DNA from: Spirochaetia bacterium
GTDB lineage: Bacteria > Spirochaetota > Spirochaetia > DSM-2461
DNA: 64,000 bases
Assembly: GCA_963666985.2 (NCBI GenBank)
Contig: CAXXIA010000002.1
Location: 1,824,001 to 1,888,000 of the forward strand
Direction of reading: 5' to 3'
Shown here in pieces: positions 3,101 through 58,454 of this stretch. Every line of letters starts with the position of its first letter. The first letter of the stretch is position 1. The notes under the pieces are model-generated. The model did no database searches, was not told the origin of the DNA, and saw nothing but the letters and a program-made list of their open reading frames with translations. Made by a program: the position numbers and the translations under genes.

Positions 3101-6100
3101 CTACATGAAATATCGAAAATCATATGCTTGATCATATATTGCTTCTTCCTGTTTTGCCATTCTGGAAAGGACTTTTGCAAAATCAAGTGTTACTGGCAAA
3201 GTTTTATATAAACTATCCCCGCTATTCCAGTTCATCTTGGATAGCATTAGGATCTCTTTTGCAAGAATATCACCAGATGCTTTACCATAGAATCTCTGTA
3301 TGATAAGGGGAACAGGTATTCCTCTTCCGCCTTTGTAATAATTTAATCTGCCTTTTAATTCATCTTGAATTACACATCCATGTGTCCATAAGAGGAAAGT
3401 GTCTGAAGTTAACGAAATCACCGTCCCTCTTTTAATTGCGAAATTTTCAGGGCCACTTTTGATATTGTTATTAAATCGGATTGCTCGCCACGAACAATAC
3501 TCTTGGATTTGAAGTAATTCTATATCATCGATTCCCTCTAAAGCCTGTGTAAATCCAGTAATTTCTTCACGAGTAAAAGGTGTTGTTTTATGAACAACAA
3601 TACGGTTTAGTTTGGCTGTTGGATCACATTTATAATATTGTTCCCGAAGAGAGCTCATCATGGCACGTGCTTCATCTTTCTTCATGAAAGGGTTTTTCCC
3701 AAAATAGCCCGGATCATCTATTTTTCGTAATAATAAACGTATTCCAGTACCTGTAGAGTCAAAAAGTTGACTACAGCCAATACAAATTCCTTTTGATTTT
3801 GATTGAGCATAACTAACACCAACAAACGCCGTTGAATCATTAAGGGTAACAGGTTGCCAAAGAGAACCGGAAGCTTTTGCATATAAACTTGTGGACAATC
3901 CCCAGCGGACTTTGCATGGGTCATAATATTTTATAGATTTATCCTCAATAAACTGAAGCTTTACAGATTTATCTGTTGCATATAATTTTAATGCGTCATG
4001 CAAATTGAAATCATCGTTAGGATCATCACTTTCACGAAATCCAGAAAAGATTGACGGTATATAAATGACAGCAATATCGAAGTTATGACAAGTTGATATT
4101 TTATCAATAAATGATTTCATCAGATCTAAGAAAGCAGCTATATTCAAGATTTTTGCTTTATCTTGATCGTATGTAATAACATAAGAGGTATCGTCTTCCG
4201 AAGGAATTAATATCCCTCGTTTATATACCTGTTCAAAGCCATTGAATAATTGCAGAAACCCATCTTTCTGATTCTTGGGAGAGTGCTTTTGATTGAGAGA
4301 ATTTAGGTGAGATAGTATTTTAGTAATTTGCTGTTTCGGTGAAATAATCAAAAGTTTAATGGAATCTCGTATTAATTTATCCTTTGAGTATGAGTAATCA
4401 ATTGGTCCAAATTTATTGATTCCGAGAAGTTGATTAATGGCTGTGTGTGTCTTATCTTTTACATCGAAAAGCATTTGTGGTTCATCAAATTGATATGCAT
4501 TCAACGATGGCCATTCAGGTTTTCTGTTTATTCCACCACAACTCATGAAAACACTAATAAAGTTTAGTGTAGATCTATTATAACTGAATGAAATAGTTTG
4601 CTCATTATTCTTTTTTAACTTCTTATTCCAGTATTTTAATTTTTCATCATACTGTTTGTTGTATATGCCAGACATTATTTTATTTATAATTTGTTGCTTT
4701 GTAAGTTTATCAACATCAGTTCCGTTAATATGTTGAAGAAAAACAGTTGGCACAATAGAAAGGTAATAATTTCCATTGTAGACTGATAAAGCAATTTCGA
4801 ATCCATCATTTACGTTGTAATTATTTTCATATACATCTTTTTTACTTGGATCATAATATTTATTTTTTCCAAAAGAGATTAATCCTAATTTATTTACAAG
4901 GTGAGTCTTTATTAGCTCATAAAGCATGCCTGTATAAATAGAATCATGTTTATATAATATTTTGTTTGGAATTACTTCTTCACTTATTTCGGATAAAATA
5001 TGCTTCTTGAATACATCTTGAATCCTTTCTTCAATACCGAAACAATAGATTCTGCTCGAAAAAAGGGCAGCGATTATATCATTCTCACCAATAACTTCTT
5101 TTAATTCCTTCCATGAAGTGATATCGGTATCAAAGACTTTGCACTGTGGAAGGCCCGTAGATAAAAATGTATTTGTTTTTATAAAAGAATCTATTTGCTG
5201 ATTGGAGAATGACAAAGGCATCTTTCTCTTAGGAAAATCTATCCAACGATCTTCTATTTGTGCATTAGGTTTATCCTGCATCTTATAGCATTGATACATA
5301 AACTCATCAAACCCAGGTATTTCAACGACACAAGATGATTCGGAGATTGTGCATGCGCTCTCCATTAAAGTAGAAACTCTATCTGATAGATCACTCCCTA
5401 TTGGAATCATCCATACAAGACCATATTTTAGGAAATCCTCTTCACCAATATGTTCTTCAATGACTTTCATAATTGATTCGTCACAACCGGAATAACCAAT
5501 AAAAACAAGACCTGTTCCATATAAACGGCTTTTAAATTGCATTTGCATAGAATTTTCAAGATCTTTCAGCTCAGTAGAAGTGTTTTTTATTTTGTCATAT
5601 CTATAATCCCCATGTAATTTAAAAATAGAAGGAAACGATCTATCAACACAATTTTGAATCCCGTCTTTATTTGCCGAACTAAAAACAGTAAAGCTATGTT
5701 CAGGGCGAATTGTTTTTATTCCGGATTCTATTAATTCATCAAAATTCGTTGTCCAAATGTTCTGTATCTTTTTACCTATAAACAGTTCGGCCAAGCATAA
5801 ATGACCTAATGACGGTGCGATATCTCTGACTTTATATTGTACAAATTGTTCCCTTGCTACGCTAGTTGTATGGCATAATTCAAAGTAGTGGGAATATTCA
5901 TTTGATTCATAAAGTGAGGGGTGTCTGCCTTGTGAATCAAAATATTTCTGCAATTTCAGCTGTGCTGTTTTTGATTGTAGGTCTCTGAATTCTTCTTTTG
6001 AAGTACCAGTTTCAGTACAATAAATATTTCGTTTGAATTCCCAGGTTAATCCACCACCTGTTGGTATTCCTGCTTGAGCTGATGAGCCTGAACCAAGAAA

Positions 6101-6172
6101 GATATCTATACACCCATCATTCATAACGTTGAAATTGCGTAAAAATGTAGGCATATCATTCTTTCTTATCAT
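3101..6172 (-). CDS. SIR2-like NADase fused to prokaryotic Argonaute (fused SPARSA type, PIWI probably inactive)
   Basis: FLGSGSS, WTTNFD, KLHGDY and FIGYSG SIR2 motifs; C-terminal MID-PIWI motifs (FVGVSY, RIVVHK, LSKMNWNS, LPVTL) with catalytic Asp positions substituted. Confidence 0.9.
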   Translation of the reverse strand: MIRKNDMPTFLRNFNVMNDGCIDIFLGSGSSAQAGIPTGGGLTWEFKRNIYCTETGTSKEEFRDLQSKTAQLKLQKYFDSQGRHPSLYESNEYSHYFELCHTTSVAREQFVQYKVRDIAPSLGHLCLAELFIGKKIQNIWTTNFDELIESGIKTIRPEHSFTVFSSANKDGIQNCVDRSFPSIFKLHGDYRYDKIKNTSTELKDLENSMQMQFKSRLYGTGLVFIGYSGCDESIMKVIEEHIGEEDFLKYGLVWMIPIGSDLSDRVSTLMESACTISESSCVVEIPGFDEFMYQCYKMQDKPNAQIEDRWIDFPKRKMPLSFSNQQIDSFIKTNTFLSTGLPQCKVFDTDITSWKELKEVIGENDIIAALFSSRIYCFGIEERIQDVFKKHILSEISEEVIPNKILYKHDSIYTGMLYELIKTHLVNKLGLISFGKNKYYDPSKKDVYENNYNVNDGFEIALSVYNGNYYLSIVPTVFLQHINGTDVDKLTKQQIINKIMSGIYNKQYDEKLKYWNKKLKKNNEQTISFSYNRSTLNFISVFMSCGGINRKPEWPSLNAYQFDEPQMLFDVKDKTHTAINQLLGINKFGPIDYSYSKDKLIRDSIKLLIISPKQQITKILSHLNSLNQKHSPKNQKDGFLQLFNGFEQVYKRGILIPSEDDTSYVITYDQDKAKILNIAAFLDLMKSFIDKISTCHNFDIAVIYIPSIFSGFRESDDPNDDFNLHDALKLYATDKSVKLQFIEDKSIKYYDPCKVRWGLSTSLYAKASGSLWQPVTLNDSTAFVGVSYAQSKSKGICIGCSQLFDSTGTGIRLLLRKIDDPGYFGKNPFMKKDEARAMMSSLREQYYKCDPTAKLNRIVVHKTTPFTREEITGFTQALEGIDDIELLQIQEYCSWRAIRFNNNIKSGPENFAIKRGTVISLTSDTFLLWTHGCVIQDELKGRLNYYKGGRGIPVPLIIQRFYGKASGDILAKEILMLSKMNWNSGDSLYKTLPVTLDFAKVLSRMAKQEEAIYDQAYDFRYFM

Positions 6173-6189
6173 ATAACAACCCTCTATCC

Positions 6190-6669
6190 TTATAACTCCA
6201 TCAAATCATTCCAATTATTCCGTAGGTACAATTCAATTCCTCTTCCAGGAGCATATTGCGGGTATTTTTCGAGAAAACTGTTCTTGGCATTTATATAACT
6301 GGTATTTGAAATTTCATTTTTTCTTGCAAGATAAACAAGACCGATTGAAGGAGATCGTGAAAAACCTTGATTGCAGTGGATAAGAATCGGTTTCACTGAT
6401 AAGTATTTCTCAATAAAATCAAAGGATGATTTCATAATTGGATGAGTAAATTTAGGAAGAAACTCTCTTTCCATATCTACCATATTTAGATAAAGATGAT
6501 CGGTTGTCACAAAAACAAGATAGTTTGGATGCGTCGAAGACAAATTCCCTCTATAACCAACACCTTTCTGATGACATGTTTTACAAGCATGTATTATTGC
6601 GATATCTGAACGGTTATTTAAACAATCTGAATCATCACCAATATAAATATTGTAATTAATTTTGGTCAT
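6190..6669 (-). CDS. Dual-specificity/PTP-like phosphatase
   Basis: IHCNQGFSRS matches HCxxGxxRS; ends 17 bp upstream of the Argonaute gene. Confidence 0.8.
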   Translation of the reverse strand: MTKINYNIYIGDDSDCLNNRSDIAIIHACKTCHQKGVGYRGNLSSTHPNYLVFVTTDHLYLNMVDMEREFLPKFTHPIMKSSFDFIEKYLSVKPILIHCNQGFSRSPSIGLVYLARKNEISNTSYINAKNSFLEKYPQYAPGRGIELYLRNNWNDLMEL

Positions 6670-6939
6670 ACTCCATCCTTTATTCAATAAACTTATATCT
6701 CTTTCTTTTCCCTCTGAATGAATTTTTCAAAGATTCTGTCCGTATGACATTATATATTATGTACTTTGTCGATAATTCGTAAAATCTGTATAAAATTGTG
6801 CAAAAATGTCATATAAGGAGAATATCAAGTATAAATTATGTAGTAAACTGTTAAGTGAATTAGAGTTCATACTAAGTCCATCAGAATCACGTCCTGTGAT
6901 TCTGATGCATTTTTTATTGGCTCTTGGCTGGATTTCATC

Positions 6940-12291: not shown

Positions 12292-12492
12292 AGCTGTTGA
12301 TGCGCTTCGGCCGCTAAAGGTGTTTAGCGGCCTGCGGGGCTCCGCCCAAATTTGCCTCTGTCATAGATTTTGCTTAAGTCTGTCGCTATGGTAAGATGAG
12401 TTGTAGTTAGCGGTTGAGGCTGTGAAGATTCGCAAAATCTCCGCCAGTCGCTTCGCGAGCGGCAAACTTCGCATACCAGCGGGCCGTTTTGT
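12285..12492 (+). repeat. attC site 8
   Basis: AAC 12289, GTT 12486. Confidence 0.9.
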
Positions 12493-12564
12493 GAACAAAC
12501 CAGAAATTGAACCCAAGTCCTCTTAACGTTTGAGTTTGCTTTTTACATGTGCTATTATTTTCTT

Positions 12565-12697
12565 GTCCTTAGCAAGAAGCCTCGGCTTCATTCGGTTGGT
12601 GTATAGCCGACCTGAGCGAATTGTTAGATATCTTCGCAAGAAGAGTCCTTTTATTGAGAATAAAAGGACTCTTCTTCCTCATGCCCTTAGTAAGGAC
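12565..12697 (+). ncRNA. Retron msr-msd non-coding RNA
   Basis: Flanking inverted repeat GTCCTTAGCAAG/CTTAGTAAGGAC; two short msr hairpins; perfect 18-bp msd stem at 12638-12676; lies upstream of the effector and RT. Confidence 0.8.
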
Positions 12698-12701
12698 TTT
12701 T

Positions 12702-13625
12702 ATGAATTGGAAGAATAATCCCAATTACCTAATAGCCAAAAGGGATTTTACGTTAGCGTTTTCCACGCGATTGTTAACAAATCTATACTATTCAATGCCA
12801 AAAATTGTTTTTATTTGTGGTGGCAAGCCGACAAATTTCGTTAATCGCGAGAAGATCGAGAGATACTTTGAAAAAAATCTAGAGAGATTCTTAACCTTCC
12901 GCGCTGAGAATGCCTGGAATGTAATACAGGAAAATTTAAGAGGTACAAATGCACTAGAATTGGAAGAATGGTTAGCAGATTTTTCAGATGTTGTAATTAT
13001 ACTAGTCGAGAGCTTTGGGACAGTTGCAGAGCTTGGCGCTTTCTCTATGAATTCAATACTAAGAAAAAAGGTTCTTCCAATTTTAGATACAAAATATGAA
13101 GGAGATGATTCTTTTATAAATACTGGACCAATAAAGTGGATCGATAAAGAGTCCAAATATTCTCCTTCGATATATGTTGATTTTAGTCTGATTTTGACGT
13201 GCATGGACGAGGTTGAACAAAGAATATCAAAGCGATATTGGGAGTATCACAACGTATCCAGGACCTATGGAAAATATGGATATACCAAAAAAGTTCTTCT
13301 CTATTTCTTTATTTATGTTTTGGCCTCATTAGGGCCGATTGACATTGATGAGATAGTTGAAATAACAAATAATCTTATCTCGTATCAAGATAAGAAAAAT
13401 ATTCAGTTTATCGTATCTATCGGTGTAGCCCTAAAGATTTTTCAAAAACGTAGTGTAATGGGCAATGTGTACTATACCTGCTCAAACTATCGGAAGCTTT
13501 TCTCAAGTCCAATCACTAAAGACCACCTGAAAAGGATTCAAAATATTCGAGCGAGAAATTTATCGTCACTACTGAAAATTAAGGACTTTGTAAAAGTTAT
13601 GGACTCGGCGAATGTCAATAGTTGA
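12702..13625 (+). CDS. Retron Ec86/St85-type effector (NDT-like)
   Basis: VFICGG and LEEWLADFSDVVIILVESFGTVAELGAF motifs; overlaps RT start; ATG 12702 follows the ncRNA. Confidence 0.85.
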   Translation: MNWKNNPNYLIAKRDFTLAFSTRLLTNLYYSMPKIVFICGGKPTNFVNREKIERYFEKNLERFLTFRAENAWNVIQENLRGTNALELEEWLADFSDVVIILVESFGTVAELGAFSMNSILRKKVLPILDTKYEGDDSFINTGPIKWIDKESKYSPSIYVDFSLILTCMDEVEQRISKRYWEYHNVSRTYGKYGYTKKVLLYFFIYVLASLGPIDIDEIVEITNNLISYQDKKNIQFIVSIGVALKIFQKRSVMGNVYYTCSNYRKLFSSPITKDHLKRIQNIRARNLSSLLKIKDFVKVMDSANVNS

Positions 13626-14538
13626 ATTAATTTCGAAACAAATGTTACTAGAGGAAGATTATCTCCTCACAATATCAAAAAGTTCGTCTGCAAGATACAA
13701 ACGTTTCACTATTAAAAAACGGAATGGCGGTGATCGAGTAATTTACCAACCTTCAAAAGAATTGAAATCAATTCAAAGAGTTCTTCTCGATATGTTTTTG
13801 TCTAAACTTCCTATTCACTCTTATGCATATGCATACAAGAGTGGAACAACCACAAGAGATTGTCTTCAAAATCATTCGGAGAACAAATATTTTCTTAAAC
13901 TTGATATGCAAGACTTTTTTTACAGTATAACAAATAGCGATCTCGACAAATACTTTAAAGATATTAGGAGGGAAGACATTATACACCTCTCATCTTGTGA
14001 TATAACTTTTATCAAAGATATTTGTTGTTTTAACAAAAGACTTGTAATCGGAGCCGTTACATCTCCAACATTATCAAATGCAGTTTGTTTTAATCTAGAT
14101 CAAAAGATATCACTACTCTGTGAAAGTCTGGAGGTTGAATATAGTAGATATGCCGATGATTTAATTTTTTCCACAATGAAAAGAAATGCGTTATCAAAGC
14201 TTCCTATTCAGATTGAAGCTTTACTAAAGAAAATTTCTTATCCAAGCGCGTTACGTTTGAATCATAACAAAACTCGATATTATTCGCATAATAATGCAGT
14301 AAAGATATTAGGTCTTAAAATTACTAACACCGCAGAAATTTCGATTGGCCGACAAAAAAAACGCGAAATTAGAAGTAAAGTGTACAAGTGGAATCACCTC
14401 AATCCCGATGAAAAAAAGCATCTTCAAGGATTTTTGGCTTATTGCAGAAGTGTAGATCCGGTCTTCATTGATGAGTTGTGTCTAAAATATAAAGCAGAGC
14501 GAATTAACGATATAATCCATTATAGTGGAAAAGGCTAA
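13612..14538 (+). CDS. Retron reverse transcriptase
   Basis: IKKRNGGDRVI, LDMQDFF, GAVTSPTLSN, YSRYADD and ILGL motifs; 308 aa with no maturase or endonuclease domain. Confidence 0.93.
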   Translation: MSIVELISKQMLLEEDYLLTISKSSSARYKRFTIKKRNGGDRVIYQPSKELKSIQRVLLDMFLSKLPIHSYAYAYKSGTTTRDCLQNHSENKYFLKLDMQDFFYSITNSDLDKYFKDIRREDIIHLSSCDITFIKDICCFNKRLVIGAVTSPTLSNAVCFNLDQKISLLCESLEVEYSRYADDLIFSTMKRNALSKLPIQIEALLKKISYPSALRLNHNKTRYYSHNNAVKILGLKITNTAEISIGRQKKREIRSKVYKWNHLNPDEKKHLQGFLAYCRSVDPVFIDELCLKYKAERINDIIHYSGKG

Positions 14539-14582
14539 AATTTTTTCTGGGCTTGTTACAAAGGTAATCTAGGCGTTTGTTC

Positions 14583-14799
14583 ACAAAACAGCTGTTGATG
14601 CGCTCCAGCTGATAACGAGGTTATCAGCCTCCGGGCCTTCGGCCAAATTTCGTTTTGGCGATGGCTCTTGCAGATGCGTTTCCGAAAGTGATGTGATACC
14701 ATCAAAGGCGAACAAAGCATTGCAGTAGAAGAGCAAGAGCACATGCCAACCGGCTTTCAGCCGGACACGAAACATTCGCATAACAGCGGAACGTTAAGC
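14583..14799 (+). repeat. attC site 9
   Basis: AAC 14587, GTT 14793. Confidence 0.9.
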
Positions 14800-17410: not shown

Positions 17411-18397
17411 TTAGTCTACAGAGTAAGAAAGAAGGCCACTAGCTAAATCTGCCAGATAGATAAAGTTTCCATCACCCCAAACTCCATAGGCTGAATTGCA
17501 TTGGTCGTCGGAATCAATAAATTTCAGGTTACCCGAAGAATCAGCTTTATAGGAGAGAAGGCCACCGAAGTTATTTGCCAGATAGAGGTAGTCTCCATCA
17601 CCCCAAACTTCCATGGCGTTACCGCCCTGGTCGTCGGAATCGATAAATTCCAAGTTACCCGAAGAATCAACCTTATAGGAGAGAAGGCCACTACGGCTAT
17701 TTGCCAGATAGATGAATTCTCCATCACTCCAAACGCCATAGGCGTAACCGCCTTGATCGTCGGAATCGATAAATTCCAGGTTACCAGAAGAATCAACCTT
17801 ATAGGAGAGAAGGCCACTGCTGTAATTTGCCAGATAGATAAAGTCACCATCACCCCAAACGCCCCAGGCTGAACCGCCTTGGTCGTCAGAATCGATAAAT
17901 TCCAGGTTACCAGAAGAATCCACCATATAAGAGAGGAGACCACTATCGCTATTTGCCAAATAGATGAAGTCACCATCACCCCAAACTCCCACTGCATGAC
18001 CGCCTTGGTCGTCAGAATCGATAAATTCCAAGTTACCTGATGAATCTACATTATAGGAGAGTAGGCCACTTTCACCATCTGCCAGATAGATGTAATCTCC
18101 ATCACCCCAAACTTCAACGGCGGTTCCGCCCTTATCATCGGAATCAATAAATTCTAGATTGCCTGACGAATCTACCTTATAGGAGAGAAGGCCAATTGGG
18201 CCATTTGCAAGATAGATGAAGTCTCCATCACCCCAAACTCCATAGCCAATACCGCCTATGTCGTTGGAATCGATGAAGGTTAGATAACCTGATTTCTCGT
18301 TGTCTACATCGGATGATGGATTGCTACATCCTGCAGCGAAAATAATAAGTACCACAGAAAGAATAACATAAAAGATTTTATGTAAGGGTTGTTTCAT
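17411..18397 (-). CDS. LVIVD-like repeat (beta-propeller) lipoprotein
   Basis: IIFAAGC lipobox; about seven 42-aa repeats of VWGDGDFIYLAN...LLSYxVDSSGNLEFIDSDD. Confidence 0.82.
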   Translation of the reverse strand: MKQPLHKIFYVILSVVLIIFAAGCSNPSSDVDNEKSGYLTFIDSNDIGGIGYGVWGDGDFIYLANGPIGLLSYKVDSSGNLEFIDSDDKGGTAVEVWGDGDYIYLADGESGLLSYNVDSSGNLEFIDSDDQGGHAVGVWGDGDFIYLANSDSGLLSYMVDSSGNLEFIDSDDQGGSAWGVWGDGDFIYLANYSSGLLSYKVDSSGNLEFIDSDDQGGYAYGVWSDGEFIYLANSRSGLLSYKVDSSGNLEFIDSDDQGGNAMEVWGDGDYLYLANNFGGLLSYKADSSGNLKFIDSDDQCNSAYGVWGDGNFIYLADLASGLLSYSVD

Positions 18398-18657
18398 TAC
18401 CCCCTCCATTAACACAGATTAACCCTTAAGGAAATATAAATATATCTAATTATATATGTTGCAATAACGAACATTAACACACCCCTATGAAATAAAACAA
18501 GAGTATTGTCGATAAGGCCTTTATAGGGATAAAAAACGCGTATACGCCGATGGTCTTCCTAAAGAATTATCATCGCTTTTCATCTATATTATATGGAAAT
18601 CAAGAAGCTTTTAGTTTTAGGGCAAAACGATAAGAGGACGTTCAGATCGGAAACTTC

Positions 18658-18867
18658 GCCAAACAGCTGTTGATGCGCTCCGAATACATTTGCATGCAAA
18701 TGTATTCTCCGGGGCTTCGCCCAAATTTGCCTCTGTTACAGATTTTGCGAGAGGCTGCGACCGTGGTAAGATGAGTTGCAGTATGCGGATGAGGTTGTGA
18801 AGAATCGCAAAATCTCCGCCAGTCGCTACGCGAACGGCAAACTTCGCATACCAGCGGCCCGTTTAAT
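18658..18867 (+). repeat. attC site 11
   Basis: AAC 18662, GTT 18861. Confidence 0.9.
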
Positions 18868-18933
18868 GAAAAAGCCAGAAGGCATTTCACCGCCTCGGCA
18901 TCCATGCCTCGGCGAGTAGATTGAATTAGGAGT

Positions 18934-19206
18934 ATGAAAACTATGAATGTAAGAGACATTCTCATTGTCAAAAAAGCAAAGAAAATAGAGAACTTCGATC
19001 CTATTGTCCTTGGAACACAGACGCTCACCAATGTGAGCAAAGAACAAACTGATAAGGATGCTAGTTCCCATAACGGATTTGAGTTAGGTACACAAACTAG
19101 AACATTTACTCAAGAAGAAATGACAGACAGTGATACAGACAGAATACAACTTGGTACTCAGACTGTGACGAAACATATGGCTGAGGGTACAGACGAAGAT
19201 CGATGA
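18934..19206 (+). CDS. Graspetide (ATP-grasp RiPP) precursor with three cores
   Basis: Leader followed by three LGTQTxTxxxxExTDxD repeats; AGGAG RBS; overlaps the ATP-grasp gene. Confidence 0.85.
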   Translation: MKTMNVRDILIVKKAKKIENFDPIVLGTQTLTNVSKEQTDKDASSHNGFELGTQTRTFTQEEMTDSDTDRIQLGTQTVTKHMAEGTDEDR

Positions 19207-20150
19207 TTCTTCTAGTTACAAATACCGAAGATAAAACAGCTGACTACCTAGAGAGAAATACAAAGAATTCCTTCTTACGTTTCAATACTGAGAAATTTCT
19301 GACAGAGTATAAACTCTCGTATTCGAACAGTGGATTCGAACTACAACATGTCTTATCAGGGAAAATTGTCACAAATCAGAATTTAAAAGGAGTGATCTAT
19401 CGTAGACCAACTTATCCTGACGTGTCAGCTGATGACGGATCCACGAAGCTTCAAGAAGAATTGAGGAATGAAGCTCGAATAATATACGAATCAATACTAG
19501 GTAGTATTGATACAAGATGGATCAGTGAACCATATAGCGTGAGGAAAGCAGAAAATAAACTACTACAACTCAAGTATGCAAGAAATGTAGGTCTTTCAAC
19601 ACCAAAAACAATTGTGTCAAATGATAAAAACCAGGTAGAGGAGTTTTTACGAACGGCAAATTCAAGGTTGTGCATTAAGCCTATGCATCTTGGCATATTC
19701 GAGATAAAAGACGAAATCTACATACCATACAATACAATAATTTCTTATGAAGATATTTCTGCAGTTGATAACTATCCAACCTTGATACAAGAATATGTCG
19801 AAAAACAATATGAAGTTAGGGTGGTTATAATCGGAGAAGCCGTTTTTTCTATCAGAATAGATTCTCAAAAGAATGCTGATACGAAATTTGACTGGAGAAC
19901 AAATAACTGTATGGCTGTTGAATACTCAATTACAGAAATACCTTTTGAAATAGAGAATAAATGTAAGCAGTTAATGAGTGAATTTAATGTAAATTTCGCT
20001 TCAATGGATCTTGCCATCAATGAGAACGGAGAATATGTGTTTCTAGACTTGAACCCTAACGGTCAATGGGCTTGGCTAGACGAATTATTGAATTTAAACA
20101 TGACTAACGCCTTCATCGATTTTTTCGACAAAGGAGATAAATATGTTTGA
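19203..20150 (+). CDS. MvdC/MvdD-family ATP-grasp RiPP ligase
   Basis: YRRP, AENKLLQL, IQEYVEKQYEVRV, FDWR and FLDLNPNGQWAWL motifs. Confidence 0.9.
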   Translation: MILLVTNTEDKTADYLERNTKNSFLRFNTEKFLTEYKLSYSNSGFELQHVLSGKIVTNQNLKGVIYRRPTYPDVSADDGSTKLQEELRNEARIIYESILGSIDTRWISEPYSVRKAENKLLQLKYARNVGLSTPKTIVSNDKNQVEEFLRTANSRLCIKPMHLGIFEIKDEIYIPYNTIISYEDISAVDNYPTLIQEYVEKQYEVRVVIIGEAVFSIRIDSQKNADTKFDWRTNNCMAVEYSITEIPFEIENKCKQLMSEFNVNFASMDLAINENGEYVFLDLNPNGQWAWLDELLNLNMTNAFIDFFDKGDKYV

Positions 20151-20676
20151 TCCAGTTCATATCTTGGAAGAAAAAAATAATAGCACCCTAAGTCGATATG
20201 AATCATTTTACTCAAAGCAAAATTCCATTTTCACTTTAATGACGCTACTTGTTACGGTTTTTCTTTTTCTTGCCGGCGAACATTTTCCAGCTGTCAATTC
20301 TTTGTTTACAGTTACTGATAACACTTGTTTCGAAATGGTACTAGCCGTATCTATTACAATTACATTTGTTGTTGTACTTATTTTCTTCTTCAATTTGCTA
20401 TTTCAAATTCTCTCCGGACTCAAGCCAATTGTTTTCTCTGAATTGGACTATGAAGCTATCGATGAATTCAACAAAGGCAAAGAAGAGAAGGCATATAAGA
20501 TATTGATAAAAGACATGAAGAATGTGATTGATAGTAACCAGGAGGCAATAAACGAGAAATATAATGTTTTTCTAAAAGTGAAGTCCAATTTTACAATATT
20601 TCTCTTCGTATATATGTTTTTGGTTGTTCTTGTCTTTGTCGCGACTTTTTATGCAGGAATTAATGCTGGCAGCTGA
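20143..20676 (+). CDS. Three-TM membrane protein, Pycsar-effector-like layout
   Basis: Two N-terminal TM helices, a soluble segment and a C-terminal TM; overlaps the ligase stop. Family assignment is by eye. Confidence 0.6.
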   Translation: MFDPVHILEEKNNSTLSRYESFYSKQNSIFTLMTLLVTVFLFLAGEHFPAVNSLFTVTDNTCFEMVLAVSITITFVVVLIFFFNLLFQILSGLKPIVFSELDYEAIDEFNKGKEEKAYKILIKDMKNVIDSNQEAINEKYNVFLKVKSNFTIFLFVYMFLVVLVFVATFYAGINAGS

Positions 20677-20747
20677 CTATCTCATTAGCATCTGAAGCAC
20701 ATCGTGTGCTTCAGATGAATTTATGAAGTTTTTTAGCTGGCTTCGTC

Positions 20748-20961
20748 ATTAAACAGCTGTTGATGCGCTCCGGCGATAATCGGGGATTATCGCCTCCGGG
20801 GCTCCGCCCAAATTTCGTTTTGTCATGGCTCTTGCAGATGCAGTTCCGTAAGTGATGTGATACAGTCAAAGAAGAACATGGTGTTGCTGTAGAAGAGCAA
20901 GAGCACATGCCAACCGGCTTTGCCGGACACGAAACGTTCGCATAACAGCGGGCCGTTAAAT
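20748..20961 (+). repeat. attC site 12
   Basis: AAC 20752, GTT 20955. Confidence 0.9.
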
Positions 20962-27987: not shown

Positions 27988-30219
27988 TTAATTCCGTACA
28001 CGTGCTCTATCTGAAATTCTTAGATCACTTCTATTCCATCCAAGAGAATTCATTTCCTTTACCATCTCATTAAATATAGGTATGTTTTTTTCATGATCTC
28101 TTACACTAACTAATAAAGCAAACTTTTGAGGCTCTAATTGCATATTATGTGTTTCAAATCTTCTCTGAAGATTCAACTTCAGCCTCCAGATGTCACCACT
28201 ACACCCCCGAGGAAAAATTCTTCTATATACTTTCACTGGGGACCATTTAAATCCGTGTTCGATTTGTTCTGATTCATATAATTTATTGATATCTTTAGGA
28301 TCAATTGGAACTTTCTTTGAATGTTTTCCATTTTTAAAAATTCCTAATGAGACTTCAATATTTGATCGGCAATACTCTGCTAGAAATGACGAGTCAGTAG
28401 GTGGTGAATATACCAAAGTCATTAATAATTCTCCATGGAACTTACCGTCAGCTCGTAATGATTCGGGTAGAGGAAAAGGTTGGCGGCTAAATTCTAAAGA
28501 ATCATATAATTCTCCCTCAAAAATCATAGTGCAAGTAAATGGATCACCAGTTAAGAATTTAATTGGTTCAAGCGGTTTTCCAAAACCATAGTATTTTACT
28601 TCTTCTGCAGTTCGTATTGGTGAATCTAGTACCGCACTATGAATGACCAAAGCCTTTATTAATTCTTTTGAAATATCACCAGATATTAATTTTGTGTACT
28701 GTGAAGCTATACTTGAAACTATAGGTGTAGAGAAACTAGTCCCAATATTTTCAGAATGCTTTGAGTCTGCAGAAACCGAAAGAACACCTGTTTGAGAATA
28801 GTTACCATTTTTATCACAATTTCCACCATAATGAATAATTTCTGGTTTTGGAATGAAACTCGGTCCGGGGCCTCTTCTAGAAAAAGGGGAAGGCTCTTCA
28901 TTTCGAACTAAAGTAATTGGTGTAAATTTATGTGTTATTGAACCAACAGATAACGCCCGAGATGAATCACCAGGTGTAGAAATTCTATCATCAATACTTA
29001 TATCACTAGGTGGCCAGTTTCGGAGAGGTATATTTGTGTAATTACCTGCTGATATTACAAATAATACATTATAAGTATCTTGTAATTCATCAAAATAACT
29101 TGCTAGTGAAGAATATGAGAACGAATCAGTAGGCGTTGAGGCTCCTAAAGAAAGATTCCAAATACGTACATAAGGAAATGATTTTATAGAATCTTCAATG
29201 GTCTCTTTGAGATCCTCTTCTGAAATTCCATTTTTGGGAGATAAAGCGCGGATGTCAATGATTTTAGCATGTACATTAGGGAAACGTGGATCGGAGTGGT
29301 TTAAACTATGATTATTAGCTATTAATCCTCCGACAAAAGAACCATGCTCAAAATCCGTTTCTTTATCTATAATCCTTTTTTTCCTAGCAACAACCCAATC
29401 CGATAGAGCTTTATTGTCATCATGAATACCTGTATCAATAATTCCAACTATTGGGTAATCGACTGATTTATCAGGTTTTGGAAAGAGTTGCTCATGCAAA
29501 TCTCCAATTGTTATATTAGTCGTTTTTAATGTTTCATATTGAGGGAACAAAGACACAGTTCTAACAGGAGGGAAAATGCATAATTTTGGAATTGTTTGAT
29601 TGTCATTAATTTCTGCCTTATATACAATTTGGTTTTTCCCATAGTTAATTTTTTTATATTTTAGAATGCCAATTTCTTCAAATACAGATAATAAACATTT
29701 ATTAATTTTATTATTTAACTCAGTATCCTTAAAATCGAATAAACTAATTTTTATCTCTCTGAAATTTTCAATAGAAATACTTGAATCAATACGATCAAAT
29801 TGAGAATAATCTAAAAAGCTTTCAAGTGATGAGATATTTGCGATATTTTCTTTTGTAGTCCCTTCCTCTATAATTCTATTCAGTTTTTCAAGACCGATCT
29901 CATTTACTCTTATTAGAAGCTTTCCAAATCCATAATCACCAATAATTGGACATGTAGAGTTATTTAATAGCGATGATGGACGATGACTTTTTGCAATAGC
30001 CTCTTTCTTTAATTCAACTCGTGCAATATTAGGTATGTTTGGCCATTTATGAAATGTTTTTTTATATTTCTGGTTAATGCTTGAAATTTGATTTGAATAT
30101 AATGAGCGCAATGACGGTGTAACATTTGAAAAAACTTTTTTAGGACCGCCAGATGAATAGGGCTTATGGTGATCTCGTTCAGAAATCGTAATTACCTGAA
30201 GGGGATATTCATCTGACAT
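27988..30219 (-). CDS. ietS: S8 subtilase-family peptidase, IetS-like
   Basis: Catalytic triad motifs IIDTG, EHGSFV and GTSFSTP; downstream of an AAA ATPase. Confidence 0.85.
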   Translation of the reverse strand: MSDEYPLQVITISERDHHKPYSSGGPKKVFSNVTPSLRSLYSNQISSINQKYKKTFHKWPNIPNIARVELKKEAIAKSHRPSSLLNNSTCPIIGDYGFGKLLIRVNEIGLEKLNRIIEEGTTKENIANISSLESFLDYSQFDRIDSSISIENFREIKISLFDFKDTELNNKINKCLLSVFEEIGILKYKKINYGKNQIVYKAEINDNQTIPKLCIFPPVRTVSLFPQYETLKTTNITIGDLHEQLFPKPDKSVDYPIVGIIDTGIHDDNKALSDWVVARKKRIIDKETDFEHGSFVGGLIANNHSLNHSDPRFPNVHAKIIDIRALSPKNGISEEDLKETIEDSIKSFPYVRIWNLSLGASTPTDSFSYSSLASYFDELQDTYNVLFVISAGNYTNIPLRNWPPSDISIDDRISTPGDSSRALSVGSITHKFTPITLVRNEEPSPFSRRGPGPSFIPKPEIIHYGGNCDKNGNYSQTGVLSVSADSKHSENIGTSFSTPIVSSIASQYTKLISGDISKELIKALVIHSAVLDSPIRTAEEVKYYGFGKPLEPIKFLTGDPFTCTMIFEGELYDSLEFSRQPFPLPESLRADGKFHGELLMTLVYSPPTDSSFLAEYCRSNIEVSLGIFKNGKHSKKVPIDPKDINKLYESEQIEHGFKWSPVKVYRRIFPRGCSGDIWRLKLNLQRRFETHNMQLEPQKFALLVSVRDHEKNIPIFNEMVKEMNSLGWNRSDLRISDRARVRN

Positions 30220-30229
30220 AATAATGCTC

Positions 30230-31321
30230 CTATTTTAATAGATTTGATATTTTCCCAACTGAATAATTAAATATCTCACTAATTACTTCATAAGTAAAAT
30301 ATTTGGGGTTAACAGCTCTAAGATGCTTAATAACTGAAATCTCACTAGTATCAATTTGATTGTTGGAAGCCTTAAATAAATCTATGATTGTGTCGCGTAA
30401 ATTGATTTTCTCATAATTATTTACAATTTTATTTCTAATATTATTCTCAATAATATTTTTAATCTCCGATCCGGATAATCCATCTGACGCAATCGAAAGA
30501 AGGATATTATTTTTTTCATCAATAAATCCGTGAGAATATTTGTTTATTATTTTACTTCTAGTTTCGTCATTTGGTAATGTAATATTTAATTTAAAGTTAA
30601 ATCTTCTCCAGACAGCGGGATCAAGTAAATGTTCATGATTTGTCGCTGCTAATAGAATAGTATACGAATCCAAAGCATCGATATTTTGTAATAAACTAAC
30701 TACAACCCTTTTTAATTCACCTAATTCGTTGTGATCATCCCTGACTTTAGCAAGAGAATCGAACTCATCTAGAAAAAGAATGCAAGGACGTGAGTTAACA
30801 TATTCAAATAATTGTCTAATATTTTTAGCAGTACTTCCTAAATATGAAGAAATTAGTGTATCACTTCTGGATACTATGAGCGGTAATTTTAGTTGGGAAG
30901 CGATATAGTGTGCTAATTCAGTTTTACCACACCCTGGAGGGCCATATATTAGCATTGACGGTGAAATACCAACACCATCTTTAAGAAGTTGATCTGATGC
31001 TTTTACATATTTTATAAAATTTTGTATGTCTATTGTAATATGATCGTCTAAATACACCTCAACATTTTGTGTGAAATATTTCTCATCAGCTAATGAGGAT
31101 TTTGATTCTTGATCTATTGGAATAGGTTTAATACTAAGATCTTGGGTAAATAAATTATTGGTTTTGATATTGTTTATTTTATTAATAATTCGCGTAGATG
31201 ACCCTGTATCACCTTGAATAGCTAAATTTTCTGAAAGTAATTTACTATATGATATGATTTTATCTTTATCTAATTGAAGACCGCCTTCAATTATCTTTAG
31301 AACTTCTGATAAATATTGCAT
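30230..31321 (-). CDS. ietA: AAA ATPase, IetA-like
   Basis: GPPGCGKT, LFLDEFD, GELKRVV and LDPAVWRRF motifs; start MQYLSE after GAGGGA. Confidence 0.85.
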   Translation of the reverse strand: MQYLSEVLKIIEGGLQLDKDKIISYSKLLSENLAIQGDTGSSTRIINKINNIKTNNLFTQDLSIKPIPIDQESKSSLADEKYFTQNVEVYLDDHITIDIQNFIKYVKASDQLLKDGVGISPSMLIYGPPGCGKTELAHYIASQLKLPLIVSRSDTLISSYLGSTAKNIRQLFEYVNSRPCILFLDEFDSLAKVRDDHNELGELKRVVVSLLQNIDALDSYTILLAATNHEHLLDPAVWRRFNFKLNITLPNDETRSKIINKYSHGFIDEKNNILLSIASDGLSGSEIKNIIENNIRNKIVNNYEKINLRDTIIDLFKASNNQIDTSEISVIKHLRAVNPKYFTYEVISEIFNYSVGKISNLLK

Positions 31322-31624
31322 TATTCCCTCTTGTGAAAATATATACCAATTCGTGAAAAAATGCAATATATAATGAAAATGTATCATAATATGTGAAAAA
31401 AATAAGCTATATATGAAATATCCTTCTCGATATAACATTATAGATTATCTACTTTGTCGGTAATTCGTAAAATCTGTATAAATTATACAAAAATGTCTTT
31501 TAAGCAGCATAGCAAGTATAAATTATGTAGAAAACATTAAAAGAATTAACGTTTACATTAGTCCATCAGAATCATGTCCTGTGATTCTGATGGTGTTTTT
31601 ATTGGCTCTTTTCTGGATTTCATC

Positions 31625-31913: not shown

Positions 31914-33253
31914 TGAGCGACCAGGACATCCTTTACATTTTAGGTTCAGGACATCGTTTACACTAAACAAGTTTAAACGAAGCATTTGAACCCATCAACA
32001 GAGGGTATAAATGCAAATGTTTTCCGATCAATTTCTCCTAATCTTAAATTGTCAAACCAGACGGTAAAAGTCTCATCTTCATTTTCTCGAAGACCAACTT
32101 GGTATCCAACAAAGACATAACTGACGAAAATCCTGTGTCGGTCTATGGTCACCGCCCCACGATTATTTATCATTCTCACCTCATATCCGGATGGATAAAT
32201 CACCTGTGGAATCTGAGAAGGGAAGGGCCGTTTGGACTTTGTGTAAACACTTCCGGGAGTCTGCATTTTAAGAGCTTCATGAGGTCGAACACTGTTGAAC
32301 TGATTTCTCCAGACATCAAAATGCGCCTGATGTTCAGAGAGGTTACCCTGAATCTGTCCCTGTAATTCCCGTTTGATATCGGCATGCATTCTCTCATGCC
32401 CCCCGTTCTCACAAGGTCGTCCCGGAGTGATGCGATCAAGTTCGATTCCCAAGGCCAACCACCAAACACTTAAGCGTGTGAGCCCCAGCAGTCCCTTCAT
32501 GGAGGCAAAGGGAGGTCCGTTGTCGGACCTAATGACTCTGGGCATTCCATAGATGGAAAAGAGCTTCTCAAACTCGGTTCTAACTTCTTGTGTGTCAGCC
32601 TTTTGGAGTGCTTTGATGGTAAAGATGTATTTGGAAAACTCATCCCGAACGGTCAAAGGTTCACATCGTTCTCCCTCGGGAGTATACCACCAGCCTTTGA
32701 AATCCACGGTCCAGATGTCATTCGGCTGCTTGGCTTGAAGACGGCTCTGGATTCGCTGAGATTTATTCTGCCGGCGTTTCTTTCGGTGCACTACCAGACC
32801 TGCTTTATCCAGGATGCGTTTCACGGTGGTCAGACTTGGACTCTCCTGGTGGGGATGTGTCTTCTGGTAGATATCGAGGATTTTCTTTGGCCCCCATTTG
32901 GTGTGTCGTGATTTGATTCGGACGATGTCGCAGATGACATTCTCCGGTGTCTGGTGAGGGCAGATACGAGGTTTCCTGGTTCTTTCATTCAGGCCGGCGA
33001 GCCCTTCCTGAATAAACCGGTTTTTCCATTTAAGGCCTGTCGGCCGGGAGATCCCGTACTCAGCACAGAGGTCTTTCATACAGACATGGGGATCCATGGC
33101 CTTGAGGGCGAACTCGAATTTGACGTCCATAATATTGGTCTCCTTCCACGGCATAATCAGCACCTCGATAAGGGAAAGTACTGATCATTTTAGTCCTTGT
33201 CGTGTAAAGGATGTCCTGGTACTCTCGTGTAAACGATGTCGTGGACCCGTACC
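31914..33253 (-). mobile_element. IS481-family element, isoform B, copy 2
   Basis: Nearly the same ends as isoform A; TSD AGGT. Confidence 0.88.
31973..33163 (-). CDS. IS481-family DDE transposase, isoform B
   Basis: 396 aa; close paralogue of 14877-16070. Confidence 0.92.
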   Translation of the reverse strand: MLIMPWKETNIMDVKFEFALKAMDPHVCMKDLCAEYGISRPTGLKWKNRFIQEGLAGLNERTRKPRICPHQTPENVICDIVRIKSRHTKWGPKKILDIYQKTHPHQESPSLTTVKRILDKAGLVVHRKKRRQNKSQRIQSRLQAKQPNDIWTVDFKGWWYTPEGERCEPLTVRDEFSKYIFTIKALQKADTQEVRTEFEKLFSIYGMPRVIRSDNGPPFASMKGLLGLTRLSVWWLALGIELDRITPGRPCENGGHERMHADIKRELQGQIQGNLSEHQAHFDVWRNQFNSVRPHEALKMQTPGSVYTKSKRPFPSQIPQVIYPSGYEVRMINNRGAVTIDRHRIFVSYVFVGYQVGLRENEDETFTVWFDNLRLGEIDRKTFAFIPSVDGFKCFV

Positions 33254-33263
33254 AGGTTCAATA

Positions 33264-35039
33264 GTGAAAGAAGTAGTAGCCACGGCCGCAATAACGAAAA
33301 TCCTTCAGAATCTTGAAAGAATTTATAAAGAAGTCAGCGAAGAATGGAAAGCACAAACAGGTGAAAAAATAAATAATTACTTAACTACGTTTCTTCAGAA
33401 GAACAGTGAAGTAAAAACAATTCTACATGGAAATCAACCCAAACCATTTTACGATGTATACTTCCCTCTGCGACTATCGTGTAAAGATAGAATAGTCCCA
33501 GATAAAAATGTTGAGAACATTTTCAAGATACGAAATACACTTATCGTTTCGGCTGAAGCTGGAAGTGGAAAAAGTATGCTTGCAAAGCATCTCTTCATAG
33601 ATGTAATTGAACGATGTTATGGAATTCCTTTTATTATTGAACTTCGATATTTAAACGAAACAGAAACAAAGTTAGAAGATTATATATTTGAACAGGTCTC
33701 AAAGCATGTAACAAGTTCAGAAAGAGTATATAAAAGATTGCTTGATAGGGGAGAATTCATTTTCTTTCTTGATGGATATGATGAAGTGAAAAAAGAGTTA
33801 AAGCAAAAAACAATAATGGGAATAAAAAACATAAATGAATTATACCCAAATATAAAATTGTTTATATCTTCACGACCATATACAAATATCGACATGCTTC
33901 AAAATTTTCAAACACTTGAAATTTGCCCTCTGGATGAAGAAGAAATAGTCGGATTTATAAAAAAACAAATTGACGATGAACAGCTAGCTTCTCAAATGTG
34001 CTCTTCAGTCAATGTTGCAAGAAAGTCGAAGATATCCAGCTTTTTACAAAATCCTTTATTATTAACTCTATATATACTGACATATCAAAACAGTTCAGAA
34101 ATCCCAGGTCAAGCATCTCTGTTTTATCGAAGAGTTATAAATGCTCTTTTTATCGAGCACGATAGCAAGACGAAATTTGGCTATCAAAGGGAAAGAGTCA
34201 GCAAAGTATCATATGATAGATTTGAAGACGTTATGAAGAAATTTTCAATCGTTTCTTTTTTTGACGACAAAATATCCTTTGACTATGAATATGCCCGTAA
34301 ATTAATAGGGCAAATAATCGACAATGATGAAAACTGTAATTTTACTTCTGAAGAATTGATAGAGGATCTTAAACTTGCTTTTTCTCTTTGGGTTGAAGAT
34401 TCGGGCTTTTATTCATTTGCTCATCGTTCAATCCAAGAGTATTTTGCTGCTTTATATATTCGCGATTTAGATGAAGAAAGCAAGCAATCTTTATATAGTC
34501 AGATAGTTGAAAAAATGGACAAATTCACAACCGACATGTACAATCTGTTGTCGATATTGAATGAAATTGATAATATTGCATATTTAAAATATTACCTTGT
34601 ACCAGTTATAAGTGAATATCATAGTTTTTTGACCGACAATCCTGATAATACCTCTTTTCTCTTTTCGATGTTTTCCTTTCATGACTATAAAAAGGAATCA
34701 GTAATTAGAACCTCAATTTCTCTGGCAGGATTCAAGTACTATTTTTTATTAGACAAAGAGAGATTTACTGGTCAAATATTTAAAATCATTGATGAAGAGG
34801 TTATAAAAAAGAATGGCTTTGGAGATTTAGTAAAAAACTCGCATAGAAAGAAACACTACTTGTCAGCTACGAATGTTAGTGAGAAAGGCAAAAAGTACTT
34901 GAATGAATTAGACACACTTTTTTCTGTTCGAAACGAGGTTGTAGCTTATTTGGATAATCTCAAGAAAACCTCAAATGAAGCAATTAGATTTGCTGAGAAG
35001 AAAAAGAGCCAAATTCTGAATCTAATAAAACCAGTGTAA
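33264..35039 (+). CDS. NACHT-domain NTPase
   Basis: AEAGSGKS, FFLDGYDE, ISSRP, NPLLL and FAHRSIQEYFAA motifs; likely GTG start at 33264. Confidence 0.88.
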   Translation: MKEVVATAAITKILQNLERIYKEVSEEWKAQTGEKINNYLTTFLQKNSEVKTILHGNQPKPFYDVYFPLRLSCKDRIVPDKNVENIFKIRNTLIVSAEAGSGKSMLAKHLFIDVIERCYGIPFIIELRYLNETETKLEDYIFEQVSKHVTSSERVYKRLLDRGEFIFFLDGYDEVKKELKQKTIMGIKNINELYPNIKLFISSRPYTNIDMLQNFQTLEICPLDEEEIVGFIKKQIDDEQLASQMCSSVNVARKSKISSFLQNPLLLTLYILTYQNSSEIPGQASLFYRRVINALFIEHDSKTKFGYQRERVSKVSYDRFEDVMKKFSIVSFFDDKISFDYEYARKLIGQIIDNDENCNFTSEELIEDLKLAFSLWVEDSGFYSFAHRSIQEYFAALYIRDLDEESKQSLYSQIVEKMDKFTTDMYNLLSILNEIDNIAYLKYYLVPVISEYHSFLTDNPDNTSFLFSMFSFHDYKKESVIRTSISLAGFKYYFLLDKERFTGQIFKIIDEEVIKKNGFGDLVKNSHRKKHYLSATNVSEKGKKYLNELDTLFSVRNEVVAYLDNLKKTSNEAIRFAEKKKSQILNLIKPV

Positions 35040-57576: not shown

Positions 57577-58424
57577 TTATTCAACTTTGTAGACATGAAG
57601 TCCATTCATCTGATTAGCCAGATAGATGAAGTTTCCATCACCCCATACGTCATAGGCAATTCCTCCTTGGTCATCTGAATCAATAGAGGTCAGATTTCCC
57701 GAAGAGTCAACCGAATAACTGTAAATACCATTTCCACCACGAGCAACATATAAGAAATTTCCATCACCACATACACTATAGGCAGTTGTTCCCAAAGCCT
57801 CGGAATCGATATGGGTTAAGTTTCCTGAAGAGTCAACTGAATAACTGTAAATACCACTTCCACCACGAGCAACATATATAAAGTTTCCATCACCCCATAC
57901 AGCATAGGCATCCTGACCGGGATCATCGCAATCGATATGGGTTAGATTTCCTGAAGAATCAACCGAATAGCTGTGAAGTCCTCCTTCTCCATTAGCTAAA
58001 TAGATAAAATCATCATCACCCCACACACCACGTGCAATTTCTCCCGGATCATCGGAATCGATGAGGGTTAGATTTCCTGAAGAATCAACAGAAAAACTGT
58101 AAATCCCACTTGTTCCATTAGCTAAATATATGAAGTCTTCATCACCCCATACATCAAATGCAAATCCTCCATGGTCATCAGAATCGATCTTGTTTAGAAT
58201 CCCTGAAGAGTCAACCGAATAGCTAAGGAGTCCTCTATATCCATTAGCTAGATATATAAAGTTTCCATCACCCCATACACCCAAGGCCAATTCTCCCGGA
58301 TCATCGGAATCGATGTGGGATAGAATCCCGGAAGAATCAACCGAATAGGTTTTAAAACTTCCAGAAAAGTTTGCAATATAAACGAAGTCACCATCACTCC
58401 AAACACCATTTGCTTGACTACCTG
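57577..58424 (-). pseudogene. 5'-truncated LVIVD-like repeat protein, paralogue of 17411-18397
   Basis: Same 42-aa repeats; N-terminus replaced by the IS3 end. Confidence 0.8.
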
Positions 58425-58454
58425 TGAACCACACCGGGATTCCCGGAGGCTGTT

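Follow-up and report, generated by a model that had tools for sequence, protein, structure and literature searches.

Group-6 graspetides, such as the gr_06 example of Flavobacterium frigidarium, combine repeated TxTxTxxxxExxDxD-type cores with just one ATP-grasp ligase and a membrane gene alongside, and one characterised example, OEP6-1, carries three nested cross-links (PMC12291112). The same arrangement was found in a gene cassette located at positions 18862-20955 (plus strand) of a 64,000-nucleotide stretch of a Spirochaetia bacterium genome (assembly GCA_963666985.2, contig CAXXIA010000002.1), which is hereafter called the window. The cassette belongs to a chromosomal integron with 87 attC sites, of which it follows the 38th, and encodes a putative graspetide precursor, an MvdC/MvdD-type ATP-grasp ligase, and a three-helix membrane protein. 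According to profile comparisons, this membrane protein belongs to a family that is a real but remote homologue of PycTM, which PMC11224242 describes as an effector of abortive infection that forms pores. These features point to a mobile three-gene module that would act in abortive-infection defense through a membrane effector gated by a peptide, a reading to which a probability of roughly 0.35 was assigned. The PycTM homology with its controls, the lack of export genes across this branch of graspetide clusters, the co-divergence of ligase and membrane protein, and the carriage of the trio by an integron, prophages, and plasmids are new here.

In Makarova et al. (2022; PMC8939145), precursors of this kind were placed in cluster 13, and the gr_06 and gr_05 example precursors of that study are carried by two of the present loci, L016 (F. 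frigidarium) and L069, respectively. The same source describes an uncharacterised membrane protein, cluster 18, with 198 occurrences, as restricted to those thuringinin loci in which transporters are missing, and proposes a role in peptide transport because the protein sits where known transporters are absent. Cluster 18 is probably the membrane family of the cassette, an equation of our own, and the three-gene layout has probably been catalogued already, with a different functional guess. The words "defense" and "mobile" are absent from the main text of that paper. In the accessible text of Carter et al. (2026; PMC13097080), co-occurring proteins are discussed and phage or defense is unmentioned, and the accessible text of PMC11118758 connects RiPPs (peptides that ribosomes make and that are then modified post-translationally) with phages by co-expression only. 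Literature searches, for which most subscription papers and bioRxiv supplements were out of reach, returned no report of a graspetide defense system, and the term "grasp" was absent from PMC13069673, 10.1101/2025.01.08.631966, PMC12360287, 10.64898/2026.03.17.712381, and 10.1101/2024.06.26.600839.

Compared with group-6 loci, the cassette has a shorter, basic leader (~25 instead of ~45 amino acids, aa) without the Pro of the Phhx(1,2)h motif, a smaller membrane protein (177 aa, against a median of 245 aa among the 150 top matches), and a ligase that is ~35% identical, belongs to a separate subfamily, and is packaged in an integron cassette. Thuringinin loci (group 3) likewise lack a transporter and pair a single ligase and a single membrane gene with a precursor of several Thr/Glu/Asp cores. 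In a thuringinin-type plasmid locus (L266), the membrane gene was matched weakly by the deep membrane-family profile (E 1.7e-5, Z=100); unlike in the cassette, the precursor gene comes last, in the order ligase-membrane-precursor, and the membrane protein has ~360 aa.

The pairing of an enzyme with a membrane effector also resembles Pycsar, the PycTM protein of which shares the three-helix plan in addition to remote homology. On the other hand, the enzyme of the cassette is a peptide ligase and not a nucleotide cyclase, and the motif NPLFFG, which many PF18967 (PycTM) matches share, is absent. Membership of Pycsar itself was rejected, as none of the three genes gave a cyclase-family match and the PF18967 cut-off was not reached. 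PycTM-cyclase pairs do occur in the phylum of the window, and one of them (L128) adjoins an integron-type integrase. Lanthiphages, which are anti-phage class I lanthipeptide clusters (10.1101/2024.06.26.600839), are similarly intracellular, transporter-poor RiPP clusters that are enriched near defense systems and on prophages and plasmids; for them, a share of 26.6% close to such systems has been reported, against a background of 4.7%. They differ in forming thioether instead of ester links and in being reported as non-toxic and as acting on phage transcription, whereas the third gene of the cassette encodes an effector-like membrane protein. The phage-resistance integron cassettes termed BRiCs (10.1101/2024.07.02.601719) likewise carry defense genes as cassettes, but come from mobile integrons.

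Kinship of the membrane protein with PycTM

The membrane protein (20143-20676, plus strand; 177 aa) contains hydrophobic segments that begin near residues 27, 65, and 150, which are arranged as two N-terminal membrane helices, a charged stretch of 59 aa, and a third membrane helix. Its predicted structure consists of three long helices (pLDDT 92.7), in agreement with the three-transmembrane protein noted in the initial annotation, an earlier reading of the letters of the window. The family residues R18, K24, N133, N138, and K140 are retained. A word-seeded homologue search with the protein returned only itself; therefore, its relatives were reached through the ligase.

The deep profile of the resulting family was compared by hhalign with 12 proteins obtained by a PF18967 search, and the probability was 96% in a global alignment over 150 columns. 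Reversed controls reached 0.9-5%, and 12/12 forward sequences outscored 12/12 reversed ones. An earlier comparison based on a shallower alignment (25 columns, probability 89.6%) is superseded by the deep profile. The PycTM comparison set had few sequences and came mainly from one family, and the majority of them had no adjacent cyclase. Invariant lysines of this set align with a conserved Lys in helix 1 (E-x-K) and another in helix 3 (N-x-K) of the membrane family, and the membrane-family profile retrieved an HD-PycTM fusion from a whole-genome scan. PycTM models were the commonest PADLOC matches in the family (10, 7, and 5 of 48 members; best E 1.6e-6), and the PycTM model PDLC02364 was matched by 10 of the 48 (best E 2.8e-6). 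A Pfam scan of the 48 members yielded no consistent family (best 5/48), and the ESM Atlas neighbours include clusters in which 10-15% of members carry PF18967.

A VIA-align search of PDB with the predicted model returned generic helical bundles only (best Z 11.8, rmsd 3.6, 167 aligned). No PycTM entry was among the PDB fold matches, Foldseek gave no match at E<=0.001, and a profile search of PDB sequences with the membrane family gave nothing below E 0.088. The search against Pycsar effectors that had been proposed in the initial annotation thus yielded homology at the level of profiles, and only generic bundles at the level of folds. The term "Pycsar-effector-like" used there is apt with respect to remote PycTM homology, and does not extend to PF18967 itself, which had 0 matches in the genome (G000), or to a cyclase, which the cassette lacks. 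Complex prediction with the unmodified precursor gave a score of 0.00 (mark 0.32) by a method that cannot model cross-links, and speaks neither for nor against an interaction.

Some further members of these families have different surroundings. Within the phylum of the window, the cyclase-free PF18967 genes of one family are conserved in position (L113-L127), which suggests that part of the PycTM family has a non-Pycsar role. In another locus (L129:157-1944), a PycTM gene is accompanied by a gene for a 428-aa protein with an AGS_C sensor domain, and an integron-type integrase adjoins them. A protein of the membrane family (L068:6941-8236) carries a C-terminal extension with an HExxH motif (AHEYMH) and is possibly a metalloprotease fusion.

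Precursor, ligase, and linkage of the three genes

The precursor gene (18934-19206, plus strand) encodes 90 aa, or 87 aa when read from a second ATG at 18943, for which the AGGAG at 18928-18932 is better spaced than for the first ATG. Three TxTxTxxxxExxDxD cores, each preceded by LG as initially described, lie at residues 28-42, 53-67, and 75-89. A six-frame search of the 4.86-Mb genome found this pattern at these three places only, and at least two matches occurred in 0 of 100,000 shuffles of the precursor. The precursor contains no GG dipeptide, and its leader reads RDILIV where the Phhx(1,2)h motif would be expected to have a Pro; this motif has been reported for only about 50% of graspetide precursors, so its absence is not class-defining.

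Graspetide group motifs were taken in part from Figure S2B of Makarova et al. (PMC8939145). The Thr, Glu, and Asp columns of the cores align with those of L016 and of 19 other precursors that were chosen for the same pattern, and in sequence the cores are group-6-like, as in the published gr_06 precursors. Thuringinin and plesiocin had been named as examples of multicore precursors in the initial annotation; neither is the nearest core type, and membership of both groups was rejected. The plesiocin (group 2) motif TTxxxxEE had 0 matches in the precursor. The TxxTxxxExxDxD spacing of thuringinin cores differs from that of the cassette and was absent by inspection against Figure S2B of PMC8939145. 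Omega-ester cross-links in the precursor would be predictable from the chemistry of the family.

The ligase gene (19203-20150, plus strand; 315 aa) matched PF21068 (MvdD pre-ATP-grasp) with 29.1 bits against a cut-off of 27, and matched TIGR04187, TIGR04185, and TIGR04184 with E 3e-57 to 2e-48, all under the curated cut-offs. Its closest PDB relatives are the graspetide ligases 5ig8, 7m4s, 5ig9, and 7mgv (top E ~1e-31), which supports the MvdC/MvdD-type assignment made at the outset. The conserved active-site motifs are intact: K119, K159, DWR230-232, D269, and NPNGQW do not vary across an alignment of 14 sequences. In the motif D282-L-N-P-N-G-Q-W, the usual Glu before L/I-N-P-N-G is replaced by Asp282, which is invariant across the 18-member ligase subfamily. 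The nearest named relative among the best 80 of 543 ligases is from Treponema (44% identity). Judged by its predicted proteins, the cassette is a graspetide cluster with predictable chemistry. All three genes lie on the plus strand and overlap, by 4 nt between precursor and ligase and by 8 nt between ligase and membrane gene, as had been annotated.

Ligase relatives were collected by a GTDB scan, the best 80 of 543 were considered, and the exclusion of one locus with a frameshifted ligase, which also has the membrane gene, left 79 loci. Ligase and membrane gene are neighbours in 63 of these, comprising 53 loci with a downstream membrane gene that was used for the profile and 10 that were found by it, and the synteny whose conservation had been in question is therefore widespread. 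Of the other 16 loci, one breaks off at a contig edge, another has a truncated membrane gene, and 14 are from actinobacteria or the candidate phyla radiation and, judging by those inspected, seem to represent different graspetide types. A profile made without the membrane protein of the window found that protein with E 9.6e-9 in a single comparison. The membrane gene is present in each of the five distinct metagenome loci that are closest; their ligases are 38-47% identical to that of the window, their membrane proteins (182-188 aa) are 27-30% identical, and a short-leader precursor was seen in four of them. Across 71 loci, ligase identity and membrane-protein identity were correlated (Spearman 0.57, 0/2000 permutations), and the nearest neighbour of a ligase was within the top three of the membrane protein in 53 of the 71. 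Shared host ancestry contributes to this co-divergence, and kin are not independent. The trio of the window forms a subfamily with L001, L187-L190, L199, and L200, and the membrane gene is found alongside several core types; its family comprises 5,593 representatives at E<=0.001. These results show that the three genes are inherited together across many phyla.

Variants of the module were also observed. Single-core precursors that end in APGDDDPD...CY occur with a membrane gene in L093, L058, L062, L066, L168, and L180, and L093 has two such precursors. Standalone membrane genes are followed at their 3' side by an acidic low-complexity open reading frame (ORF) of 65-71 aa in L094 (2227-2424) and L095 (1264-1479), possibly an unmodified peptide partner. 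Others have no enzyme partner and lie in apparent repeat-separated cassette arrays (L099:1474-2196 and L100:1459-2232).

Genomic context and possible function of the trio

The trio was present in 5 of 10 IMG/VR ligase loci, in one of which it is flanked by a repressor-like gene on one side and GpD/GpU/tape-measure genes on the other, and in another of which it adjoins baseplate J. Further carriers are four plasmids that were examined, a named phage of Leptospira, and a phage record that is unverified. One precursor is common to L167, L271, L069, and L089 and another to L169 and L090, and each set counts once. The trio is thus carried by an integron, prophages, and plasmids. That it is usually an integron cassette was rejected; a direct repeat was found on both flanks in only 5 of 58 loci, one of which was an artefact of overlapping windows.

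The cassette contains only its three genes and hence has neither protease nor exporter, as had been stated in the initial annotation. A Pfam scan of the 118 genes that directly flank the 63 loci, with proteins cut to 700 aa and without a control set, likewise found no C39 peptidase, ABC transporter, or HlyD; 60 of the 118 had a Pfam match. The flanking genes include one opposite-strand MFS transporter, one CHAT protein, and one S8 protease, and by our own sorting ~22/118 have defense- or toxin-antitoxin-type domains and 12 are mobile-element genes.

If the peptide gates a membrane effector, the ligase would form omega-esters between the hydroxyls of Thr and the carboxyls of Asp/Glu within every core, as family chemistry predicts. 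The product would stay in the cytoplasm, probably with its leader still attached, because peptidase, exporter, and GG site are all absent. The acidic cross-linked peptide may then be the ligand of the membrane protein in place of the cyclic nucleotides cCMP or cUMP, a role modelled on PycTM architecture. More speculatively, infection would alter the peptide pool and the membrane protein would damage the membrane. The peptide may keep the effector closed until the peptide is removed by translation shut-off or by a protease or binder of the phage; alternatively, infection-triggered cross-linking may switch the effector on. The former mode is slightly preferred, and the two are not separable. The wider proposal of a widespread, undescribed anti-phage class, with an ester-stapled ribosomal peptide in place of the cyclic nucleotide of Pycsar as the ligand of a PycTM-type pore, is tentative, and an anti-phage role of any kind for the cassette comes close to an even chance.

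The best of the other explanations is export or display, in which the membrane protein would be a minimal exporter or anchor and the peptide would work extracellularly, inhibiting proteases or serving in competition. The transport role proposed for cluster 18 (PMC8939145) agrees with this explanation, a substrate-matched transporter would account for the co-divergence with the ligase equally well, and all graspetides characterised by 2022 are protease inhibitors according to the same source. However, the membrane protein has three membrane helices only, an ATPase, an outer-membrane factor, and a leader peptidase are absent among the immediate neighbours although many of the hosts are two-membraned, and the detectable relatives of the protein are PycTM proteins and not transporters. 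Relatives of the membrane protein also occur without a peptide pathway, and export is considered somewhat less probable than a gated effector. If export were correct, the PycTM-like protein would represent a new type of minimal exporter for peptides.

Defense genes around the relatives were identified with PADLOC (E<=1e-25) among neighbours within 6 kb for 53 of the 63 loci; nine loci (62 proteins) and one locus without a long-enough neighbour were left out. The control consisted of 28 random 11-kb regions from trio-bearing contigs of >170 kb, located >50 kb from the trio; 6 of 34 regions were unscanned, one more pick was dropped for overlap, and one control region (L146, with Shedu) lies ~7 kb from a second, weaker membrane-family match of that genome. 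PADLOC-positive proteins accounted for 44/416 near the trio and 15/287 in the control (Fisher p 0.013), or ~38/416 and 9/287 (p 0.002) with a hand-applied profile coverage of 70%. The enrichment is modest: it amounts to a factor of two to three when proteins are counted and is not significant when loci are counted. The defense-rich setting that had been annotated is real for the array of the window and limited around its relatives. Neighbours include genes of a cyclic-oligonucleotide-based anti-phage signaling system (CBASS), which in L038 lie directly upstream, as well as Wadjet (L026), Olokun (L051), a pair resembling Septu (L039), STAND NTPases (L005, L057, and L064), AbiE, and restriction-modification genes. 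In L038 (2230-7700), the CBASS cyclase, E1-E2, and JAB genes run into the precursor, ligase, and membrane gene, and no CBASS effector was found within the locus at E<=1e-25; the membrane protein might serve both the CBASS and the graspetide trio.

The same defense and prophage context would suit a peptide that is itself the anti-phage agent, for example as an intracellular inhibitor of a phage maturation protease, with the membrane protein as a scaffold for ligase and precursor. A membrane scaffold has been cited for microviridin biosynthesis, but that scaffold is an ABC transporter. Lanthiphages are a closer parallel, as they act intracellularly without host toxicity (10.1101/2024.06.26.600839). 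The effector-type family of the membrane partner would be left unexplained by a directly acting peptide, which appears improbable. An addiction module without anti-phage role, in which the post-translationally matured peptide would serve as antitoxin to a toxin and integron arrays, prophages, and plasmids would thereby be stabilised, is equally improbable: the trio does occur on cassettes, prophages, and plasmids and beside integrases, truncated membrane genes (L001 and L053, both near contig ends) adjoin intact ligases, and one ligase is frameshifted (L011, perhaps by sequencing error because a near-identical intact counterpart, L179, exists), but a cross-linked peptide should be stable and poorly suited to post-segregational killing, and standalone membrane genes exist.

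Several observations weigh against a peptide-gated effector, among them the protease inhibition by all characterised graspetides mentioned above. The membrane protein of the window had no Pfam match at E<=0.1, and its PADLOC PycTM match was weak (E 0.0023), below all cut-offs. Since PF18967 includes HD fusions and cyclase-free members in a conserved neighbourhood (15/20 matches), kinship with PycTM does not prove toxicity. Ligase-free membrane genes made up 3 of the 8 real matches in 401 genomes around G406, where the other five, centre genome included, were ligase-linked, and 8 of 12 matches (E<=1e-5) in 401 genomes of the phylum of the window, where the remaining four, the window itself included, were ligase-linked. 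The per-protein p values for defense genes overstate the enrichment because genes of one system are not independent. Counted per locus, the difference was not significant (26/53 near the trio against 12/28 in the control), also with the coverage filter (22/53 against 7/28, p 0.15) or with named systems only (15/53 against 4/28, p 0.18). Many of the neighbours are simply mobile or housekeeping genes, and integron arrays also carry non-defense cassettes. Furthermore, the cassette may be silent here, because no promoter-like site was found upstream of the precursor (6 sites in the region, 6.7 expected) and the integrase is far away.

For the hundreds of graspetide clusters of this branch, the chemistry is known or predictable, and the membrane partner has been dismissed as a probable transporter. 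A peptide-gated effector would be the first biological function for group 5/6 and related graspetides, and would wire a peptide natural-product pathway into abortive infection; if the trio proves protective, peptide macrocycles would join cyclic nucleotides and DNA products among the molecules that gate immune effectors. The kinship with PycTM and the mobile carriage make the 2.1-kb three-gene cassette a sharp test case.

The integron array and its other cassettes

The preceding cassette ends in an attC-like site (18658-18867, plus strand), the R' core of which (GTTTAAT, 18861-18867) forms the left boundary of the graspetide cassette. The attC-like site of the cassette itself (20748-20961, plus strand) has its R'' core (ATTAAAC) at 20748-20754 and its R' core (GTTAAAT) at 20955-20961, and its bottom strand folds into a long hairpin of -45.6 kcal/mol (DNA parameters, a single value without shuffle control). 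GTTTAATGA at 18861 is the exact 9-nt reverse complement of TCATTAAAC at 20746-20754. In 79 of the 86 intervals of the array, the core at the cassette start exactly complements the inverse core of its own attC over 7 nt; this complementarity, which extends to 9 nt here, identifies 18862-20955 as one cassette, and the packaging that had been annotated can now be specified as part of a chromosomal integron array. A perfect 13-bp hairpin 3' of the membrane gene (20689-20717, plus strand) is a possible terminator, at which a terminator scan made no call. A contig from a public sequencing run spans 18828-20819 with zero differences; it probably derives from the source sample and hence is not independent, and the contig joints in that assembly fall within repeats.

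There are 30 attC-like repeats of this kind in the window and 87 attC sites of ~210 bp in the genome, all on one strand and spanning 154 kb. The integrase gene, which encodes a tyrosine recombinase, is located outside the window, ~65 kb upstream of the cassette (contig C2, 1777136-1777984, minus strand). Its 283-residue open frame is divergent, begins the locus 1.4 kb before the first of the 87 co-oriented attC sites, and matched TIGR02249 with E 3e-36, under the family cut-off. The array is a chromosomal integron with a divergent integrase at its head. The integron (contig C2, 1777136-1933530) encloses the entire window (1-64000) and contains several insertion sequence (IS) insertions, and its many cassettes of no assigned function are a likely reservoir of more defense genes.

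Cassettes in the window encode a retron II-A, IetAS, a fusion of SIR2 with prokaryotic Argonaute (SIR2-pAgo), Mrr, a pair resembling a type II restriction-modification system, and a HicB-like protein, together with lipoprotein-like genes and genes of no known family. The retron II-A cassette (12489-14590) contains a St85-like effector and a reverse transcriptase. The region 3101-6687 (minus strand) encodes the SIR2-pAgo fusion (1023 aa), which is full-length relative to the Aga_SIR2 model of PADLOC, and a 165-aa familyless neighbour, both of which are inverted with respect to the array. A complete IetA-IetS pair forms another inverted cassette (27988-31438, minus strand). An ORF of 647 aa (33096-35039), directly 3' of an IS copy, has weak NACHT-type anti-phage matches (EruA, E 5.7e-9). 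Two paralogous beta-propeller-like genes (17411-18415, and 57577-58485 on the minus strand) share a 126-bp (42-aa) tandem repeat; the former has a lipoprotein-like N-terminus, and the latter abuts an IS.

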